Origin: Octopus vulgaris
Taxonomy: Eukaryota
Direction: 5' to 3'
Length of the DNA: 64,000 nucleotides
Assembly (NCBI GenBank): GCA_951406725.2
Contig: OX597814.1
Span: forward strand, 148,552,001 to 148,616,000
The notes beneath the pieces were generated by a model that worked only from the letters and a program-made list of their open reading frames with translations, was not told the DNA's origin and did no database searches. Within the stretch, counting starts at the first letter, position 1, and each line of letters starts with the position of its first letter. A program made the translations under genes and the position numbers. This document shows positions 24,600 through 60,671 of this stretch, in pieces.

Positions 24600-25330
24600 T
24601 ATTGGAATCATTAGTGAAATGTGGCATATTATGTTTATGATATTCATGCTCCAGAGCAAATTTATAATTATACAATTATTACAAATACAATGTTTGGTGG
24701 AAAGCTTCAAATCTTTATCTGATGAAAGTCGTATCTCGTGTTAACCAAACGCGACTCGTCAGTTCAGAAGCTTGTTTCAAAATCTAAGAATCTATCCCGT
24801 ATGACAAAGATGTTGCTAAGTGAAACAGAATCCCGTATATCAAGTGTTGTGATCTTGAAAAGTTAATGTTGATAAAACGCACTGTCTGAACTGAACCATT
24901 TTTTAAATTGTTCAATCTAAACATAAGTACAACAGAAGTAAAATATTTGAGAATAATCCGTATTTCTTATATATATTCTTCTTCAGACGTGACTATTTCC
25001 CTATCGTCAGCGTACAACAAATCGTGAAATAGTGAAATAGTGTCACGATTGTTGTTAATGTAATTCTGAAGGAATTGATATTGGACAGTGATATATATTT
25101 CACGGACTTGAAATACTTGAATAATTACGAATGCAAGGTACACAGAAAATAACACTCACAGAGTTTAACACCATAGTTGGCACCAGCTTCTAGATGACTC
25201 GATTCTGATATAAAAGTATTAGAATTCATGTAGGACTCCTTCAAGATGTGCAGTTAGACAAACCTATCAGTAAATTTCGGTGAGCTCACAGGTTTTCATC
25301 AATTCACCAATCCCAATTGTAAGTTCTGCA
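24600..25330 (-). pseudogene. Highly decayed RTE-like RT fragment
   Basis: LFSVYLA...LFHDLLYADD, with KQASELTSRVW downstream on the minus strand. Confidence 0.6.
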
Positions 25331-36013: not shown

Positions 36014-38544
36014 CAAACATGCATAAAAATATGTACATATCTGTGTTTGTGTGCGTGTATATATCTATGTATATTATGTATATGTGTCTGTGTGTGTGTA
36101 TGGAGCTTTAGCCAGCAGGAAATGATACCAACGCATTTCAACCCTGAAACTTAATACCCACTCCTATTTATCGGTCGGGCAAATCACTACTTATCATCAG
36201 CTCCTCGCTCTTGCTTCATAACCAGCATGATGCTCTTTCTGCTGCCCCTCATTCCTTGTACACGGCCGCCTGTCGCGTTTTTATTCTCATTCCAATAACT
36301 ATAATCACATCCATAACAACTTGACAGGAAAACCCCTACAGTTACATCGACTATGAGCCTTCATGACCTAATCAATTTTCCCCCTGCAATCCTTTATATA
36401 TGGGAGTGAGATGATAACTCTCTGTTTTCTCGACAACATGTGCATATAAGGCATTAGAAAATGCATAGCAAAAGAATTCCACTTGCATGGAAAATGCATT
36501 TCACATGCTTATACCAATTCATCATTCATTAGAATTTCGACTGCAGTTTATTACGTTTGCACTTCCTTTTTATAGGAACATTTACATACGACATTTATTA
36601 ACGTGAAGTTTAATGAATGCCCTAGTCTTACTGCTTGACATCTTCACCAAACATTATATTCCGGAGCAGTAACTAAACACGAGCCTTCCTATATTATAAA
36701 TTGGATACCTGCCATATTTAAGAATAAGAGTTGAGTAGAGGGACTTCTATGTTGGACTTGCCTGCTTCTTTCAAAGACATAACCGATTCTGATTTCCAAG
36801 CTCTGCAGGTGTAGTGAAACCCATAAAACGAATTGTTAATATATGTATAAAAGTGTGACTTGTCAAACATCATTTAATCTATATTACGATATAAAGACAT
36901 ACATCGCACATTATAGAGCTATTGTACACAAGCTTTGCTACAATTAAGTTCCCATTTTATTTCCATAATGCCCATAGAGACGATCAATAATGTTGGCAAT
37001 AAAAAAAATAAATTATGATAACCTCTGGGATAATATATTTTGCATGCAGAAAGATATTAACTGCTCACAGAATAAAATGAAATAATATTCATATAGACTA
37101 AACTATAATGTCATTGGAGAATATATATGTATGTTAAATGTAGAGAGACATGAAAGAAAGCGAGCTGCAATATAAAATTACAACGCCCGTATACACACAT
37201 ACACGCATACGAGAACAATGATGACAAGTAAATTGATCAAAACAGTAACAATATCTTTCGTATACGGTGGAAATCAATATATATATAATGTAAATAAAGT
37301 TTTACTTATATACATATCAGCTGATTTAATGTGCATTACGGTCGAATATTTAAGAAGGTTATGTTGCAACTACAAGATCCTGGCTTCGATACTGCCACAT
37401 GGGCCTGTGTGAAATAAAGAAATAACATGGGCCTGTGTGAACATCTTTAGTCTTCAACTAGCTGTTAACTTGTGACTGAGATTATGTAAGCAGGAAATGC
37501 AGCGAAAACTGACGGGTCGATTCTACCTGTGGTTTAAAGCAGCCTTAAATCACTCTAAGCTCACTCACATATCGCAACATGTCAAACTGACTTTTTCTGA
37601 TATTCATGCATAAACATATATAAAACAATATACATATATATAACAAATAGCTGGACCTGAGTACAAAGTACTACACACAGAGGTTCTAAACAAAACAATG
37701 GACGTTTAATGCTGAAAAATCATACATTTTTGTGAGCTTGCATTCGCTTGTGCCTATACAAAGATTACGTTAATTTTACTATAGACAAACGACAGTTTCA
37801 CAATATATTTGCATGTAATCTTAGGCAACTGATTTATTCACTAATTTCATTATTATTTGAAATATCAGAGAAGTATTTTCTTACGACTTAACACTCTATT
37901 AATTCTGCTTAGAATTCACGATAAGAAAAACAATTTTAATTTCACTTCTAGAATAAACAAGCCTGTCCTTTTTATTTATTAATGTTTACTCTGCAATTCC
38001 CACGAACAGACGTCAGATAAACTAAATCTCAAATGTCGCATTAATTTCGTAGATAAATCTCTTATAGAGTCTATGCTTTTAACAATCAACACAAGTTTTT
38101 TTTTTTATACAATATAAATAGAATGGATTTAAAATGTTATTAAAAATATTACATTTGAAATCTAATATCACAAATGAATAAAATATAATGGCGAAATATT
38201 GCAAAGAAACTGGAGACTGACAATAGTGTCTCGATCATTAGATTGCTTACAACTAACATCTTTGTTATGGCAATACCTGTATTGCAGACAAAAAGAAAAA
38301 ATGCACTACGATGTGGATCAAATAGACTAGTTAATATATGTTCGGAATACTGATCAGCAATTTTGGTTATATGGAATTATAATGTCGTAAAGTGACTTTC
38401 TGGCTTTTATCTCGAACTGACAGTATATTTAAACAATGTTGTGTACTTCCAGCAGTTTCTATACGAAAATAATACTCTTTATCTGCTGAGAAATGCAAGT
38501 CAGTATATGGACAGCATAATTGTGAGAGTTTTTTAATATTGTGT

Positions 38545-38616
<72 letters not shown>

Positions 38617-38619
<3 letters not shown>

Positions 38620-38932
38620 AAATAATAATAATTGGTATTTTTGTAAGCTTAAATCTTATAGCAATCGCCGTGTAATGACGAAGGGAAATAGTCTAATAAT
38701 GGGCCATATAAGCCCTCGACAGAAAAAGTAGGCTTTCCCATCTGTGTGGGACTCTAACCACATCCCTTTGTAAACGCGACTAAGTGTGTTACCGATTACG
38801 CCATGGGGGAAAGCCTACGTATTTTTTCTGTCGAGGGTTTATATGCCCCATTATTTGACTATTTTCCTTAATCGTTGCATAGTGATAGCTATAAGCTTTA
38901 AGCTTATAAAAATACCATTATCATTATTTACA
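38617..38932. mobile_element. ~315-bp palindromic element, copy 2 (family of 14846-15146)
   Basis: Termini tgtaaataataata..tggtattttt / aaaaataccattatcattatttaca. Internal ccctcgacagaaaaa / tttttctgtcgaggg. Confidence 0.85.
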
Positions 38933-39180
38933 GAATTATACACCTCGACACTGTTTAACAAAAGGAAAAAAACTTCATTCCGACGATGCTGTAAAACGCG
39001 CCTTCCAAGATTTTATTAACTCTAGATTGCCAGGTTTTTACAGTTCCGGGTCGGACCGCCGAAAGGGCAGAAGTGTATTGACGATATAGGTGCATACTTT
39101 GATCAATAAAATGATTCCGTGTATTTATAAAACGTTGGCAAACTTTTTCTTGTCTTCAAATTTTATACTTGACGACCTAT

Positions 39181-39247
<67 letters not shown>

Positions 39248-39283
39248 GAAAGAATGGATTCGAACGAAGATGTTAACAAAATT

Positions 39284-39376
39284 CCTTTACTCTCGACATA
39301 TGTTTCGAAGACAACATGGTTTCATTCCAAAGGAATAAAAGGTGCATTATGCAATCTTCTCATCAGGAAAGAAAGG
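39284..39376 (-). ncRNA. Type I hammerhead ribozyme candidate (intact core)
   Basis: Minus strand: ccuuucuuuc-CUGAUGA-gaagauugcau...auguugucuuc-GAAA-cauau-GUC-gagaguaaagg. Stems I and II pair, and stem III is the palindrome ACAUAUGU. Confidence 0.75.
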
Positions 39377-39420
39377 GAGAATTTCGAAATTTTTGTTTGT
39401 CTTGTTGTCGAGAGATGCTC

Positions 39421-39511
39421 CCTTTCTTTCCTGATGAGAAGATTGCATAATGCACCCTTTATTCCTTTGGAATGAAACCATGTTGTCTTCGAAACATGTC
39501 CAGAGTAAAGG
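39421..39511 (+). ncRNA. Type I hammerhead ribozyme candidate (core intact, first stem I pair mismatched)
   Basis: CTGATGA at 39431-39437, stem II GAAGA/TCTTC, GAAA at 39491-39494, stem III palindrome ACATGT, GUC ending at 39500. Confidence 0.65.
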
Positions 39512-39737
39512 AATTTTTTTAACATCTTCGTTCGACTCCATTCTTTCATTTATTCAAATACAACACACAAATTTCTGCACATGAACCCAGGGTTTCTACC
39601 CTTGGACAGGTCGCTTCAACCGTGTTTCTTATGTGAATTTGCTACCCTGGTTTCGGTTCAACGAATTTTCCGTGCTGACGATAAACATAGGATAATTCAT
39701 TCACCTATTTAAATATATACATACACACACACAAACA

Positions 39738-39857
<120 letters not shown>

Positions 39858-39949
39858 CGTATTCAAAGTGACTAATTTGCCAAGCACCACCAGCATTGCC
39901 AGAACCAAAAGTGTGAACAACTCTTAGCTACAGGTAAAGCACTTATCTA

Positions 39950-40100
39950 TTCTTTCCTACTCGCGGAACAAGGCCTGAAATTTGGGTTGGAGCCAGTCGA
40001 TTACTACACCCACTCCAGTATGCAACTGGTACTTATTTTATCGACTCCGAAAGGAAGAAAGGCAAAGTCAACCTCGGCGGAATTTGAACTCAGAACATAA
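39950..40100 (-). mobile_element. SINE, family A (missing its 5' head)
   Basis: acaaggcctgaaattt...caactggtacttattttatcgac...aaggcaaagtcaacctcggcggaatttgaactc. Confidence 0.8.
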
Positions 40101-40395
40101 AATCATTTATCTCTTGACTGACAAGGGAAAACAGCCTCCCTACACGAAGCGAGGAGTGTCATATCATCGATAATTTCGGATTGAATTAAACCTCACCAGT
40201 GATATTCACTCTGCTGGCTAGGCTTAAATTGAACTCACTATGTATGTTTATAGAAAATACTATACGATTTAGTGGCTGATTCACTAAAACTGTGAAGTGA
40301 AAATTATAAATTAAGGTTGCTACTCGCAGTTTAAAAGCCAAAAGTTTGTAGTACTGTCGTCACTAAAGTGACTAAGGGTGGAGACAGACAGACAT

Positions 40396-40560
<165 letters not shown>

Positions 40561-42402
40561 CAGGTAGACGAATGTGGTTCAAAGCTGATTTCGACGTACA
40601 GGTTCCTGAGATGTTTGAGGAGATGAACCATCAAGAATCTATATGGTTTTGTTTTCAAAGTATAAAGTTCATTATTCCTACCATGGTATATATTTTCAAA
40701 ACATAGACAATACTAATTTATTACTTTCATTTAGCTAAATACCAGAATTTGATAAATGAAAATCAACTGCAAGCAGAGCTACATATGGAAATGGCAATCT
40801 TAGGTATTGAAATACATATTGATTCTTACAAATGCAATATTTCTTGTTCCATTTTGTGTAAACGTTTCGTAATTCAGTGCCACTAAATAAATAAGCTTCG
40901 CCCGAGAAATGTGATATTTTTGCAAGTAATTGCCCCAACGCTACTCATTACATCTAGATCACAGTCGGCAGCACTGTGATTTCGTTTATCTAAAAGCCGT
41001 ATATTTGGCAATTGCAGCTAAAATACCGTTATACTTTCGTATATTATAAATGGATTGATATCTTTAGTCCTAGCAATGCGACCGCAATAAATTATCTGTG
41101 AAGTTATGCTCGTGTTCTGTACAAATCCACAGAACTTTCAAAACCATCCGTTTCTCTATTGATTTCTTGTGAACACAAATTTACTAGTTCCTAAAATACA
41201 GATAGATATACCAACCTTATTTTCGAAGAGAAGGAATTCATGTGATAGGAAATGCTACGGATATTATTTATAATGTTACTCATTAGATTACTGGTATAAG
41301 AGCGGGGGAAAGGGGGAGAGGAGGCGATTTGAGAGAAGTTATGGTGAGTGAAATATGTAATTTTCTTTGAATAAATGTTTCCTCCGTTCCTTACCCCCGT
41401 CTGTAACGCTTTCATGTGATTAGTTGAAGGGAAAGGTGAAGAGCGAGAGAAAGAGAGGGTAAGGCGACGAGTGAAAGAGAAAGAGGTATAGTGCTGTCTA
41501 TTAAATCTATGAAATTGTGCGTAATGTATACAAAGTGGATATATAAATTACATTAAGTGATGATCATATTCCAAGTTCTATCATTTTTCGATGTGCCGCA
41601 GATGAGTGACTATTTTTTATATACTGGCAAAATACAGGCTACGATTTCAGATTTTTTGGATAAAGTTTTCAGAAATAATCCAATAAGTTTATCATTAATT
41701 CCATGAAATATCCACGGGTCCAGCTAGTCAATATAATCAACAATAAAATCGTATATATTACATTTGAGGTATATAAAGATGTGCTTTATTTTTTGCTCTT
41801 CCATTAAATATAGATGCTTAAACGATTATATATACTAAATAACATAGATCTTATCATTCACATATTTAATTTGAGTTGATTGAATGTTCAAAGTGGGAAA
41901 TATAAGCAGTTTTTGAATGACTGGAAATATGTTAACAAATGTATGAAATAATTGATTGTACATATTATCACATACTCAGCACAATATATACACGTATAGA
42001 TATTATTTTCATATCCCATCCCAAACCACGTCACAGAAGACAATTGTATTATAAATTATTTGCAATGCAATAGAATTATATGTTTAACCGACAACTACAT
42101 TTGACTGAAAACTACATTCGACTCTTTCGATAGTTCAAACGTATTTACATGCACCTTATAGCACGCTGAATATAAAGTCCGCTGTTCCCCAACCGGACCT
42201 GAAAATACACAAATCTCATGAACTTGATACTACAGTTCTAACATCATTCGAGTGTTTCCATATTAGATCATTTGTATTTAATTTTAACCACGTTATTATC
42301 AACACATTTATTTTGAAAATTTACCTTTGGAATTCCAATCTCCTCCAGACCTTTTACTATTACATAGTGTTTAAATACATAACTGAAAATCTATTGAAGA
42401 AA

Positions 42403-44539: not shown

Positions 44540-45328
44540 TGAAATGTGAGCTGTCATTTATAATGGACAATTATAGACCGTCATTGAGAAAAGACCATAT
44601 GAAACCATCCAAGAATTGGTAAAAGAACTGCAAGTCAGTCGGAGAACTGCCTGTAACTATTTATATGCTATCGGAATATCAAAAAGCCTTGACAAATGGG
44701 TACTACTCGATTTGAATGAAAATCAGAAAATGCGCAGGTATGAAGTTCGTCGCTTCTTCTCTGCAACTAGACCGTATTGTAACTTGCGATGAAAAGTGGA
44801 TTCGACCAATTATAAAAATCGGTCTTCTCAGCAGTCGATCCAAAATGAATCCCCGAAAAACTTCCGTAAACTCGAGCTCTTCAAAAACAAGGTTATGACG
44901 ATGTTTGGTGGTGTACTGCTGGACTGAACCACTATAACTTCTCAAAACCGGAAAAAGCATTACTGCAGAAAAATATCGCCATGAAATTGCCAAAATGAAT
45001 GACAAACCGTTACTCCTCCGTCCCAGACTGAAGAAGGCCAATAATTCTCATAACGATGCACCACCACTCATTTCACTAATGACGCTCCAGAAGTTGAAGA
45101 ATTCCTGATCCAGTTCATTCTCCATGCATTTCTCCTACCGACTACCACATTTTCAAGCACCTTGATGGCATCATGCAAGAGAAGAATTTCAAAAATCAAA
45201 CATGTTGTTGTTAGTGCGTTCAAAGTGTTCATCACCTCCAGAACTCCATATTTTATGTTCCCCAAATAAAAAACAAATTGTAATCTGTTGGCAGAAAATG
45301 TATTGATTGTATTGGTACTTACTTTGAT
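44540..45328 (+). pseudogene. Decayed mariner transposase
   Basis: ELVKELQVS, LDKWV..DLNENQK, RIVTCDEKWI, SITAEKY, SPTDYHIFKHL, GTYFD. Many frameshifts. Confidence 0.85.
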
Positions 45329-55579: not shown

Positions 55580-56450
55580 CACACACAGCGTAGATGCAAC
55601 AAAAAACCAATGCTGTGATTTTTTGAGTGTTACTACATGAGCGACCTCGTAGACGAAAATGGTGTTCATCTTAGGGGATACCGATAACGTATGCATGATG
55701 AATAGACAGAAAGAGGATTGTTTCAACTCATGGAACACAGATTATGTGATCAAGCTAGAGCAATAAGAAAAAAATCGTTGTTTCACATAAGTAGAGCTCG
55801 GAACTACCAAATCGCACAGCAGAAAACAGAGGTGAACTCAATAATAAACCACAGGAAAGGAAGAGTGAGGGCTTACTCGATGAGACATATAACTGGTTTG
55901 GAAGAAGACAATAAAACTAAAGATGGGCGAAACAAGATACCTACGACAGAATAAAGCCAAGACTACAGGAGAACGATAGCGACATTATTTGTAAACTTAT
56001 AAAGGTTGATCGGTGGAAATTGAACCAAGAATCGAAAAATTTAAATGAAATTCTGAAATACATGGAAGCAAAAAATATCACAGAAACAAGCAATCTGATT
56101 AAGGCAGCAAATATTATTGTAGCAGAAAATGTGGATGTTGATGTCAAGAAAAAAGAAATGTAACGGAAGTGACAAAAGGAAAGATCCATGGTGGAAAAGA
56201 AAAATACAGGCGGAGTTTGATATGTTCTCGAGGGACATTTCTGTGATAGACCGAAAAGAGAAGTGGGAGCTTAAAAGCGAACAAAAAAAATCAGGCACAA
56301 AGCAGGAAGTATAATATTGAAACGAAGGGCTTGAAAGTTGTAATGTAGGAACTGAAACAGTTGCAAAGAAAGCCCGGTTCGAAATTTCCCCAAGACACCT
56401 GATGAAGGCTGGAGGGTATATCAACCGAAACGTTGTTTTAACAACAAACT
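55580..56450 (+). pseudogene. Decayed N-terminal part of an R4/Dong-clade ORF
   Basis: ECYYMS...RGYR*RMH...RGLF...EHRLCDQARAIRK, ITETSNLIKAA..IVAE, DPWWKRKI, ELKQ. Confidence 0.75.
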
Positions 56451-56612
56451 AGATGGGGACAAATATTCGTCAAATGTAAATAATTTAGCTCATGTAAATT
56501 ATGGGCTACAGACAAACGCAACTGAATATGTGTAGGATAAATTATATTACACCAGTAATACGTTGTGTTTGTATCGACAGTTTTGCAAGATGTTAATAAT
56601 TTATTTGCTTCA

Positions 56613-57050
56613 TTAACATATTACAATAAAAGCAGCCTGGCATTGAAAGTAACAGTGATCGTGTTGCAGTGTCTGAAGCCATCTTTCTGTTAGCTCTTTA
56701 ATGAAATATTGATTCCGTTTCCACCAAACACAAAGCATCACATGTTTTCGAAACTTCTCGTGTTTGGTGACAGGTTCCGGCACTTGTCCTTGCTTAACCA
56801 CTGCTTATTCTCGTAAGGATTGCAAAAAAAATATATTTTCCTTGGATTATTACTTGTCGCGATCCATGGTTCATTTTCTGCGCTCGTGATGTTTTATAAA
56901 CTGAGATGAGGCAGAAACTTTGGTGAAGGAGTAAAGAATTGGTATCAGCGCTGCACGAAACAAAATAACATAACAGTGGTTGGTTCAACATGACGATCTC
57001 TACCATGGACGCTAGGCTCCTCTCGCTGTAACTCGAGGATTAAAGCAAAT
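56613..57050 (-). pseudogene. Internally deleted mariner relic
   Basis: VKQGQVPEPVTKHEKFRKHVMLCVWW is joined directly to the C-terminal IKELTERWLQTLQHD.CYF. Confidence 0.65.
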
Positions 57051-58475: not shown

Positions 58476-58761
58476 TTATTGTATGGAAAGTGTTCTGCGT
58501 AGGATGTGTGCAGTGCCTAGTAGTGCAATTTTCTGTATGTTATATGTGTTTGTAAGTCCTGGTGTTTTTGTTATGTATTTGTCTGAATATTTTTTTATCA
58601 TGCCTAATGCACCTACTATGATAGGAATTGTTTCTGTTTTCAGATTCCACATTCTAGTTACCTCTTTTTCCAGGTCTTTGTATTTTGAGAGTTTCTCCAT
58701 TTCTTTTAGAGACACGTTGTCATCTGCCGGTACTGATACATCAATTAGAAAGCATTTTTTT
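58476..58761 (-). CDS. Frameshifted C-terminal continuation (RLE endonuclease)
   Basis: One extra A in the A7 run (plus-strand T at 58755-58761) gives HEEKKCFLIDVSVPADDNVSLKEMEKLSKYKDL...IPIIVGALG...ILRRTLSIQ*. Confidence 0.85.
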
Positions 58762-60619
58762 CTTCATGGTCTCTGACAACTATATCTGGTCTGTTGGCCT
58801 TAATTTCTCTATCTGTGTGTATCGGCATATCCCAGAGTATGGTTGCTTTCTCGTTTTCTGTGACCTTTTCTGGTGTGTGCCTATACCATCTTTTTTCTGT
58901 TGTTATTCCATAATGTTGGCATAGCTTCCAATGTATGTAAGTTCCAACTCTGTCATGTCTGTGAATATATTCCTTCTTAGCCAGGACTGGGCAGCTAGAG
59001 ATAATATGATTTATTGTTTCTTGTCCATCTCCACATATTCTGCAGTTACTTGTAATATTTCTTTTCATTACATGTTTTTGGTAATTTCTGGTGGGGAGGC
59101 TTTGGTCTTGTGCTGCAATTAAAAATCCCTCTGTTTCTGCTTTGAGTCCTGAGCTTCTCAACCATTGCTGGGATTTTTCTTTGTCTATTTCTTTTGCGTT
59201 TAGTTTAGTCCAGTATTTACCATGAAGGGGCTTTTCTTGCCATCGTTTTATCATGGTTCGTTGCTGTTCTATTTTTAGTTTGGATTTCATTTTTTTTATA
59301 GCTTTTGTTGTTTCTTCATCTTCTTCTTCTTCTTCTTCATGTTTATTAGGTGGTATGATTTCTTGTTTGTATTTGTCAGCTTCCTTAAATACTGAGAACA
59401 GTTTTTTGTTTTGCTCGTGTTTTGCCGCTATCTGGATCAGTTTTCCTTCCTTCTGAAGTAGATATTTTTGCAGTTCTATGGTGGTTATTTTATAGTAGTT
59501 TTCCAGCTGTATAAGGCCTCTACCACATTCTATACGTTGTATATATAGTCTTTCTATGTCAGATTTTGGGTGATGCATCCTAGATCCTGTCATTATTTTT
59601 CTTGTTTTCCTGTCTATTTTGGTCAGTTCATTTCGTGTCCAGTTAAGGATATTGTAGCTGTAACTTATAACTGGGACAGCTAAAGTGTTGATACCTATTA
59701 TCTTGTTTTTAGCATTGAGCTCTGTGTTTAGTATTGATCTAACTCGTCTATAATATTCTTTTTTTATTTTCTCTTTCATTTGTGTGTGTTGTGTCTTATC
59801 TAGTTCATGGATTCCTAAGTATTTGTAAGTTTGGCTTTGGTCTAATTCTTTTATTTCATTTGCTTCATCTAGTGTGATGTTGTTACTCTTAACTAGTTTT
59901 CCTCTTTTCATGGTTACTTTGGCGCATTTTTCTAATCCAAATTTCATATCTATTTCTTTGGTAAATCCATGAACTGTCTTTAATAGTGTTTCCAGCTGTT
60001 TGTCATTTGCAGCGTATAGTTTTAGGTCATCCATATATAAAAGGTGGCTGATCGTTTTGCCGTAACATTTATATCCGCATCCAGTTCTATTTAGCATATC
60101 AGATAGAGGTGACAGTGCCAAGCAGAAAAGGAGTGGAGAGAGCGTATCTCCCTGGAATATTCCTCTTCTAATGGGGATGTCTTTGGTTTTCATGAGTCCC
60201 TCTTTTGTTTGGTGGTGTAGGACTGTTTGCCATTTATTCATAGAGTGCTCTATGAATTTTATGATTGTTGGTGCTACTTTGTTAATGGCTAGTGTTTCGA
60301 GGATCCATGTGTGGGGGATGCTATCAAACGCCTTTTTGTAGTCAATCCAGGCCATACTGAGGCCTTTCTTCTTTCTGTGGCTGTCTTCAGTTATGGCTTT
60401 ATTAATCATTAGTTGATCTTTACAGCCATATGAGCCTTTGCGGCATCCTTTCTGCTCTTCTGGGAACAGTTTGTATTCGTCCAGGTGCTTGTTCAGCCTT
60501 TGTGATATCACTGCAGTAAATGCCTTGAACATAGTAGGGAGGCAGATTATTGGTCTGTAGTTTTCTGGTTTTTCTGTTTCATTTGATTTTGGAATTAAGA
60601 TGGTTTTCCCCTTCGTGAG
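58745..60619 (-). CDS. R4/Dong-clade polyprotein, partial (reverse transcriptase, CCHC zinc knuckle, start of restriction-like endonuclease)
   Basis: LTKGKTILIPK..NYRPIICL, EQKGC, WIDYKKAFDS, GIFQGDTLSPLLF, HLLYMDDLK, YKYLG, CRIC...ETINHIISSC, RHD, WD, RPDIVV. Confidence 0.9.
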   Translation of the reverse strand, partial: LTKGKTILIPKSNETEKPENYRPIICLPTMFKAFTAVISQRLNKHLDEYKLFPEEQKGCRKGSYGCKDQLMINKAITEDSHRKKKGLSMAWIDYKKAFDSIPHTWILETLAINKVAPTIIKFIEHSMNKWQTVLHHQTKEGLMKTKDIPIRRGIFQGDTLSPLLFCLALSPLSDMLNRTGCGYKCYGKTISHLLYMDDLKLYAANDKQLETLLKTVHGFTKEIDMKFGLEKCAKVTMKRGKLVKSNNITLDEANEIKELDQSQTYKYLGIHELDKTQHTQMKEKIKKEYYRRVRSILNTELNAKNKIIGINTLAVPVISYSYNILNWTRNELTKIDRKTRKIMTGSRMHHPKSDIERLYIQRIECGRGLIQLENYYKITTIELQKYLLQKEGKLIQIAAKHEQNKKLFSVFKEADKYKQEIIPPNKHEEEEEEDEETTKAIKKMKSKLKIEQQRTMIKRWQEKPLHGKYWTKLNAKEIDKEKSQQWLRSSGLKAETEGFLIAAQDQSLPTRNYQKHVMKRNITSNCRICGDGQETINHIISSCPVLAKKEYIHRHDRVGTYIHWKLCQHYGITTEKRWYRHTPEKVTENEKATILWDMPIHTDREIKANRPDIVVRDHEEKNAF

Positions 60620-60671
60620 CAGATGGTTTTCCCCTTCGTGAGCTGATGGTTATTATTATTATTATTATTAT

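Follow-up and report, generated by a model that had tools for sequence, protein, structure and literature searches.

Penelope-like elements (PLEs) typically leave inverted, 5'-truncated copies of themselves, carry a one-sided tail of 30–40 bp, and are biased towards microsatellites (Craig et al., PMC8557442). Head-to-head repeats are abundant, palindromes occur at the junction, and self-priming has been proposed (Arkhipova et al., PMC3846280). For an anole element, both strands were cleaved and extended in vitro, and two internal start sites of reverse transcription explain the tail (PMC11167929). Here we describe an insert of ~470 bp in a 64-kb window (the whole stretch of octopus DNA that was analyzed), which is AT-rich, microsatellite-dense, and contains decayed transposon pieces. 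The insert resembles the insertion units of canonical endonuclease-positive (EN+) PLEs (Penelope/Poseidon, Neptune, Nematis, and Hydra; PMC8557442, PMC3846280): an inverted, truncated copy stands head-to-head with a longer one, a palindrome lies at the junction, the extension is one-sided, the target is a microsatellite, and the repeat carries a hammerhead. It differs from these units in having no open reading frame (ORF) and in the length of its extension (~160 nt versus 30–40).

Metazoan PLEs also encode hammerhead ribozymes; in Schistosoma mansoni pairs of them lie 100–700 bp apart on opposite strands. Their stem III is palindromic, and activity is low even for dimers (Cervera and de la Pena, 2014, PMC4209133); a review gives the dimer model (PMC6765202). 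The motifs at this locus resemble the published examples in having type I topology, a G10.1-C11.1 pair, an enlarged stem II, and a small stem III whose palindrome is suited to dimers, and in lying as a pair on opposite strands. By contrast with the forms described in PMC4209133, stem I is longer here (10 bp plus a bulge), stem II ends in a further hairpin, the two cores lie 65 bp apart, and an unpaired base after A9, typical of metazoan PLE hammerheads, is missing. The insert is also similar to animal non-LTR retrozymes in being short, non-coding, PLE-related, and present in many copies with a type I hammerhead (Cervera and de la Pena, 2020, PMC7229834; Li et al., 2026, 10.64898/2026.07.22.740005).

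The initial annotation had described an inverted repeat (39242–39553) in which both strands bear a type I hammerhead motif. This repeat proved real by arm alignment, by folding against shuffles, and by descriptor search. When the left arm is read on the minus strand, its 138 nt align to 136 nt of the right arm (39418–39553) with four substitutions and one 2-nt indel (97% alike). Folding of all 312 nt gives –219.9 kcal/mol, compared with –66.5 ± 5 kcal/mol for 100 shuffles. The extent of the element, by contrast, had to be redrawn. The annotation had ended it with the right arm and had taken the palindrome as the unit; however, contigs that bridge 39553 show that the next ~160 nt belong to the same family, which runs through 39716 and, in other copies, also continues upstream of the center. 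The palindrome is thus a by-product inside a larger insert, which we place at ~39245–39715 because the same compound microsatellite flanks it on both sides. The features of the locus are collected in Table 1.

Table 1. Features of the insert and of its flanks in window coordinates.
Feature	Position	Strand	Basis or remark
Compound microsatellite, left copy, TATACATAC-(AC)n-(AT)n	39178–39244		Pattern found twice in the window, once on each side of the insert, with one orientation
Short inverted copy of the element's 3' end, 5'-truncated	39242–39379	–	Arm alignment; family extent
Type I hammerhead motif with family core and stem III; CUGAUGA at 39366–39360; predicted cut 39295/39294	39284–39376	–	Descriptor, Rfam RF00163, folding
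Perfect 12-bp palindrome at the inversion junction, centered on TCGA (39384–39387)	39380–39391		Equals its own reverse complement
Long copy of the element's 3' end, 5'-truncated at 39384	39384–39715	+	Contig coverage; upstream family sequence differs
Decayed type I hammerhead motif, predicted cut after 39500	39421–39511	+	First stem I pair lost through C at 39501 (G in the family); 2 nt missing from stem III
One-sided 3' extension ("tail"), ~160 nt, same family	39554–39715	+	Contigs X4-28, X4-29, X4-30, and X3-21 bridge 39553
Compound microsatellite, right copy, longer than the left	39716–39857		Same pattern, same orientation

Collectively, the insert consists of two 5'-truncated copies of one many-copy repeat, joined head-to-head. 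The short minus-strand copy lacks the equivalent of 39392–39417 (26 nt) as well as the 3' extension, and stops at the equivalent of 39553. Within the extension, six-frame translation revealed no conserved ORF, Pfam gave no match, and folding was no better than that of shuffles. From their arrangement, the two flanking microsatellites are likely a target-site duplication that later changed in length; a looser version of the pattern has four more matches in the window, all on the minus strand, so that compound microsatellites are common here and the duplication is not proven. We also noted an AC-rich stretch (39558–39572) that starts just past the point at which the short copy ends. This is suggestive only; in the anole element, reverse transcription begins in an AC-rich stem-loop (PMC11167929). 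In addition, an imperfect inverted repeat was seen by eye 250 bp left of the insert (38640–38940, with arms of ~100 bp at 38640–38740 and 38810–38940), possibly another fold-back or MITE-like repeat.

Each arm contains, in the order given by the initial annotation, stem I, CUGAUGA, stem II, GAAA, a palindromic stem III (ACAUAUGU on the minus arm, ACAUGU on the plus arm), and GUC. The cleavage-site cytosines (39295 on the minus strand and 39500 on the plus strand) were found where they had been predicted, as were the bulged ten-pair stem I of the minus motif and the C:C mismatch that opens stem I of the plus motif. The 11-bp stem II closing a long loop was recovered in part: the stem is present, but 10 of its 11 pairs are standard (U.U mismatch at 39444:39484), and the loop itself holds an 8-bp hairpin. 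By the definition of a type I hammerhead (CUGANGA, GAAA, NUH, and stems I–III in type I order), the minus arm matched a strict descriptor, and the plus arm only a relaxed one. The strict descriptor had a single match in the window, on the minus arm, and the relaxed descriptor had three (both arms and 56399); 1 and 2 of 200 block-wise dinucleotide shuffles, respectively, also contained a match. An Rfam search of the arms, a check that the initial annotation had suggested, returned Hammerhead_1 (RF00163) as the top match on the minus arm, although its score of 18 bits (E 0.039) falls short of the gathering threshold (34 bits). This match covers the full model, and the core nucleotides are present together with a long stem II insert. 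The plus arm alone was not matched by RF00163, nor did this model appear in a 5-kb Rfam scan (37000–42000), which gave only miRNA-hairpin matches below their gathering scores, owing to the palindrome.

Upon folding the arms separately, we found that the two ribozymes are not equivalent: the minus motif keeps the family core and stem III, whereas the plus motif is decayed and predicted to misfold. In the minus arm, stems I and II form with pair probabilities of 0.5–0.98, and stem III of the monomer reaches 0.01. The computed intermolecular duplex of the palindromic ACAUAUGU has a free energy of –7.0 kcal/mol, which, together with the poor stem III of the monomer, fits cleavage as a dimer; the minus-arm ribozyme is accordingly predicted by folding to need a dimer for cleavage. 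The plus arm is predicted to misfold even alone, its hammerhead fold lying 10 kcal/mol above the minimum with pair probabilities of at most 0.05. Since the family has G at 39501 (~99% of depth in three DNA runs) and loose ends show a longer stem III, the C:C mismatch and the 2-nt loss of the plus copy are private decay.

The initial annotation had further suggested that hairpin formation competes with self-cleavage in transcripts of either strand. The predicted effect of the hairpin is stronger than competition, as equilibrium folding removes the ribozyme stems entirely. Read-through transcription of either strand would produce the antisense arm before the ribozyme. When minus-strand RNA was started at 39417 or farther right, the first stem I pair and the G10.1-C11.1 pair dropped to probabilities of at most 0.05; when it was started at 39379–39384, both stayed at 0.8–0.96. 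All of these comparisons of ribozyme and hairpin are equilibrium predictions and not kinetics. Because the plus copy is predicted to misfold and read-through RNA to form a 136-bp hairpin, both ribozymes at this locus are probably inert.

The family itself was examined in contigs from 4 of 24 listed public runs, which were aligned to the plus copy (39378–39716) at a likeness threshold of 80%. In the three DNA-type runs (organisms A, C, and B), 1680, 1540, and 1073 contigs were matched, most of them 90–99% alike; run X11 is possibly of RNA. All 29 bins of the plus copy were covered in all four runs. The family is therefore many-copy and heterogeneous, although summed depth is not a copy number. 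Nineteen contigs of run X4 continue upstream of 39384 with other sequence, hence the plus copy is 5'-truncated at this position. The summed depth falls after 39557 in runs X4 and X3, and not in X1; we did not take this as a common 3' end. Searches of the literature on octopus hammerhead ribozymes returned no description of this family; Repbase and Dfam lay outside the search, and the supplements of papers may list it. The supplement of PMC13282606 contained no sequence match to the family.

Variation among these copies bears on the ribozyme. Three of the four G.U pairs in the window's motifs are made Watson-Crick by family variants (39443, 39474, and 39503), and in four contigs stem II is a perfect 10 bp closing a loop of 10 nt. 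Among the variants listed (12 of 52 rows being unlisted), six of the eight that fall on paired positions preserve the pair or make it better, with two-sided changes unphased. None falls on the 13 core positions, but only ~1.8 would be expected there from 19 variants in 136 positions, which makes core conservation statistically weak. Taken together, these patterns are modest signs that the ribozyme may be under selection within the family.

Each arm is two substitutions away from the family majority (~1.5%), and the plus arm has an indel in addition. The description of the element as young was therefore roughly right, and on these differences the insertion appears recent but not new. At 13 of the 14 polymorphic positions within the arm (at least 10% of depth in a DNA run), both arms have the same letter, which suggests one source for both. 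The extension, however, differs from the family majority at ~9 positions as compared with two for the plus arm. A single source alone does not explain this excess, and the only explanation that we can offer is a divergent source subfamily.

The likely source of the insert, in our view, is one abortive insertion event by a Penelope-like retroelement that has one type I hammerhead in its 3' repeat (pLTR). The PLE traits found here are a hammerhead in the repeat with a short palindromic stem III; an adjacent, inverted, 5'-truncated copy placed head-to-head with a palindrome at the junction; and, at this one site, the same compound microsatellite on both sides, in line with the microsatellite bias and variable target-site duplication of PLEs. 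A one-sided extension is also present, but at ~160 nt it is much longer than the published tail of 30–40 bp. In such an event, the element's endonuclease would nick both strands of the (AC)n(AT)n microsatellite, and reverse transcription would start at two sites close to the RNA's 3' end (the equivalents of 39715 and 39553), which would leave the one-sided tail. Both cDNAs would then stop early and be joined at the self-complementary TCGA, or one cDNA would fold back there; our data do not separate the joining and self-priming routes. Two ribozyme motifs would result because each copy is long enough to include one. For elements that are intact, cleavage by the ribozyme would take place in dimers formed through the palindromic stem III.

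The initial annotation had called the unit PLE-derived and non-coding. Its structure supports this, but a link to a PLE ORF was not found, hence membership among PLEs rests on structure and not on ORF linkage. No Penelope reverse transcriptase (RT) or GIY-YIG ORF was found by Pfam in 147 frames of the window, comprising 26 frames and 121 of 162 further frames of at least 60 aa (the remainder being 16 already done, 3 inside an RT ORF, and the 22 farthest away); Pfam is not sensitive for decayed PLE pieces. An ORF at 58745–60649 was set aside, being 19 kb distant and carrying a zf-RVT domain at its C terminus with no GIY-YIG match. On the minus strand, this open frame of 634 aa encodes a non-LTR-type RT (RVT_1, E 4e-32, plus zf-RVT) with relatives up to 59% identical. 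The family sequence upstream, read by eye from 30-nt loose ends, showed no frame consistent across runs; in a frame ending at the ribozyme, the stop comes after only 16 codons. Six scans of viral, metagenome, and prokaryote genome contigs with family patterns gave no matches, as expected for an animal repeat, and are no evidence of absence.

Inverted junctions also exist in other copies of the family, as three of the six joints listed are strand switches. Each of these three has one side at 39427 or 39428 (runs X1, X4, and X11; two organisms; one contig each), that is, 3–4 nt upstream of the ribozyme core. One of them, from a contig of another organism, has the same 39384 break as the window. 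This contig departs from the plus arm by ~10%, a greater distance than that between the two arms, and so probably represents a separate event. It is conceivable, though doubtful, that inversion junctions occur at fixed sites (the TCGA at 39384; 39427/39428), with the folded hammerhead setting the stop of reverse transcription or the strand switch. Subfamilies that diverge upstream of ~39425 could give the same pattern of joints by alignment alone.

Other origins of the insert were weighed against a PLE insertion. The family could instead be a non-autonomous hammerhead repeat, either a non-LTR retrozyme or a SINE similar to the schistosome SM-alpha, with a tandem unit of more than 340 nt that is mobilized in trans; the palindrome would still be a by-product. 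We regard this origin as unlikely. Consistent with a SINE or a retrozyme, the 3' region has no ORF, and a B-box-like GTTCGANTC occurs at 39530–39538, 30 nt past the predicted cut, in both arms; a common family variant at 39534 keeps the B-box consensus and is also a CpG change. The scan used patterns that we take to represent the A and B boxes. Nevertheless, an A box was not found by strict pattern, the chance of a B-box match in a unit is ~15% by rough estimate, and ARAGORN detected no tRNA gene (0 genes) that would provide a tRNA-like head. Retrozymes have been proposed to derive from PLEs (bioRxiv 10.64898/2026.07.22.740005), and animal monomers are ~300 bp (PMC7229834), both points in favor of this origin. 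By definition, however, retrozymes consist of direct tandem units that place at least two hammerheads on the same strand, whereas the two at this locus are inverted; no tandem copy, nor any other copy, was found in the window. Furthermore, the six main joints listed include none that leads from the 3' end back to the start, although a longer unit would not show such a joint.

Considerably less probable is an origin in which the palindrome moved as a unit of its own, as a MITE-like or fold-back element bearing long terminal inverted repeats, or in which it arose after insertion by local inverted duplication. The 97% likeness of the arms, their common haplotype, and the TA repeats adjoining the left end would be compatible with such an origin. 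By contrast, the family runs 160 nt past the right arm and, in other copies, upstream of the center; two of the three strand-switch joints pair quite different break points; and the duplicated microsatellite brackets the 470-bp insert rather than the palindrome. We also considered an artefact of assembly or library preparation (a fold-back chimera), given that no contig was seen across this locus's own junction. A chimera would have identical arms, whereas four substitutions, an indel, and an asymmetry of 26 nt separate these, and both have changes of their own relative to the family; with a head-to-head junction at 39384 also present in a contig of another organism, an artefact is very improbable. 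Finally, that the locus is a host-used switch or source of dsRNA, in which the ribozyme and its antisense arm control the fate of an RNA, is barely credible: the hairpin is very stable on either strand, but the plus ribozyme carries disabling private changes and Pfam recognized no host gene nearby among the window frames.

Several further features were seen in the window. A second, unrelated type I hammerhead motif lies on the plus strand at 56388–56490 (CUGAUGA at 56399, stem III ACGU, cut after 56434). With an unpaired base after A9, it is closer to the published minimal PLE form than the palindrome motifs are; it matched only the relaxed descriptor and had no Rfam hammerhead match. A small inverted pair of CTGANGA at 24719–24762 forms a hairpin (z –2.0) with no matching GAAA, and may be chance or a decayed fold-back stub. 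Remnants of Tc1/mariner-type transposases occur at 44577–44789 on the plus strand (HTH_Tnp_Tc3_2, E 0.0023) and at 56616–56804 on the minus strand (Transposase_1, E 1.6e-5). A bacterial promoter scan, which is irrelevant here, gave 0 sites.

The arrangement reported here, head-to-head PLE stubs with hammerheads on opposite strands, is already published, and the locus, as one more such stub left by Penelope-like elements, matters little in itself. What it offers is access to a many-copy hammerhead family. How the inverted junctions and tails of PLEs form, and what their hammerheads do in vivo, are described as open questions (PMC8557442, PMC11167929). Fixed junction sites, if true, would give PLE hammerheads a structural role in integration, and the many copies of this family, together with its possibly fixed junction sites, would let the questions of junction, tail, and hammerhead be tested by counting alone.
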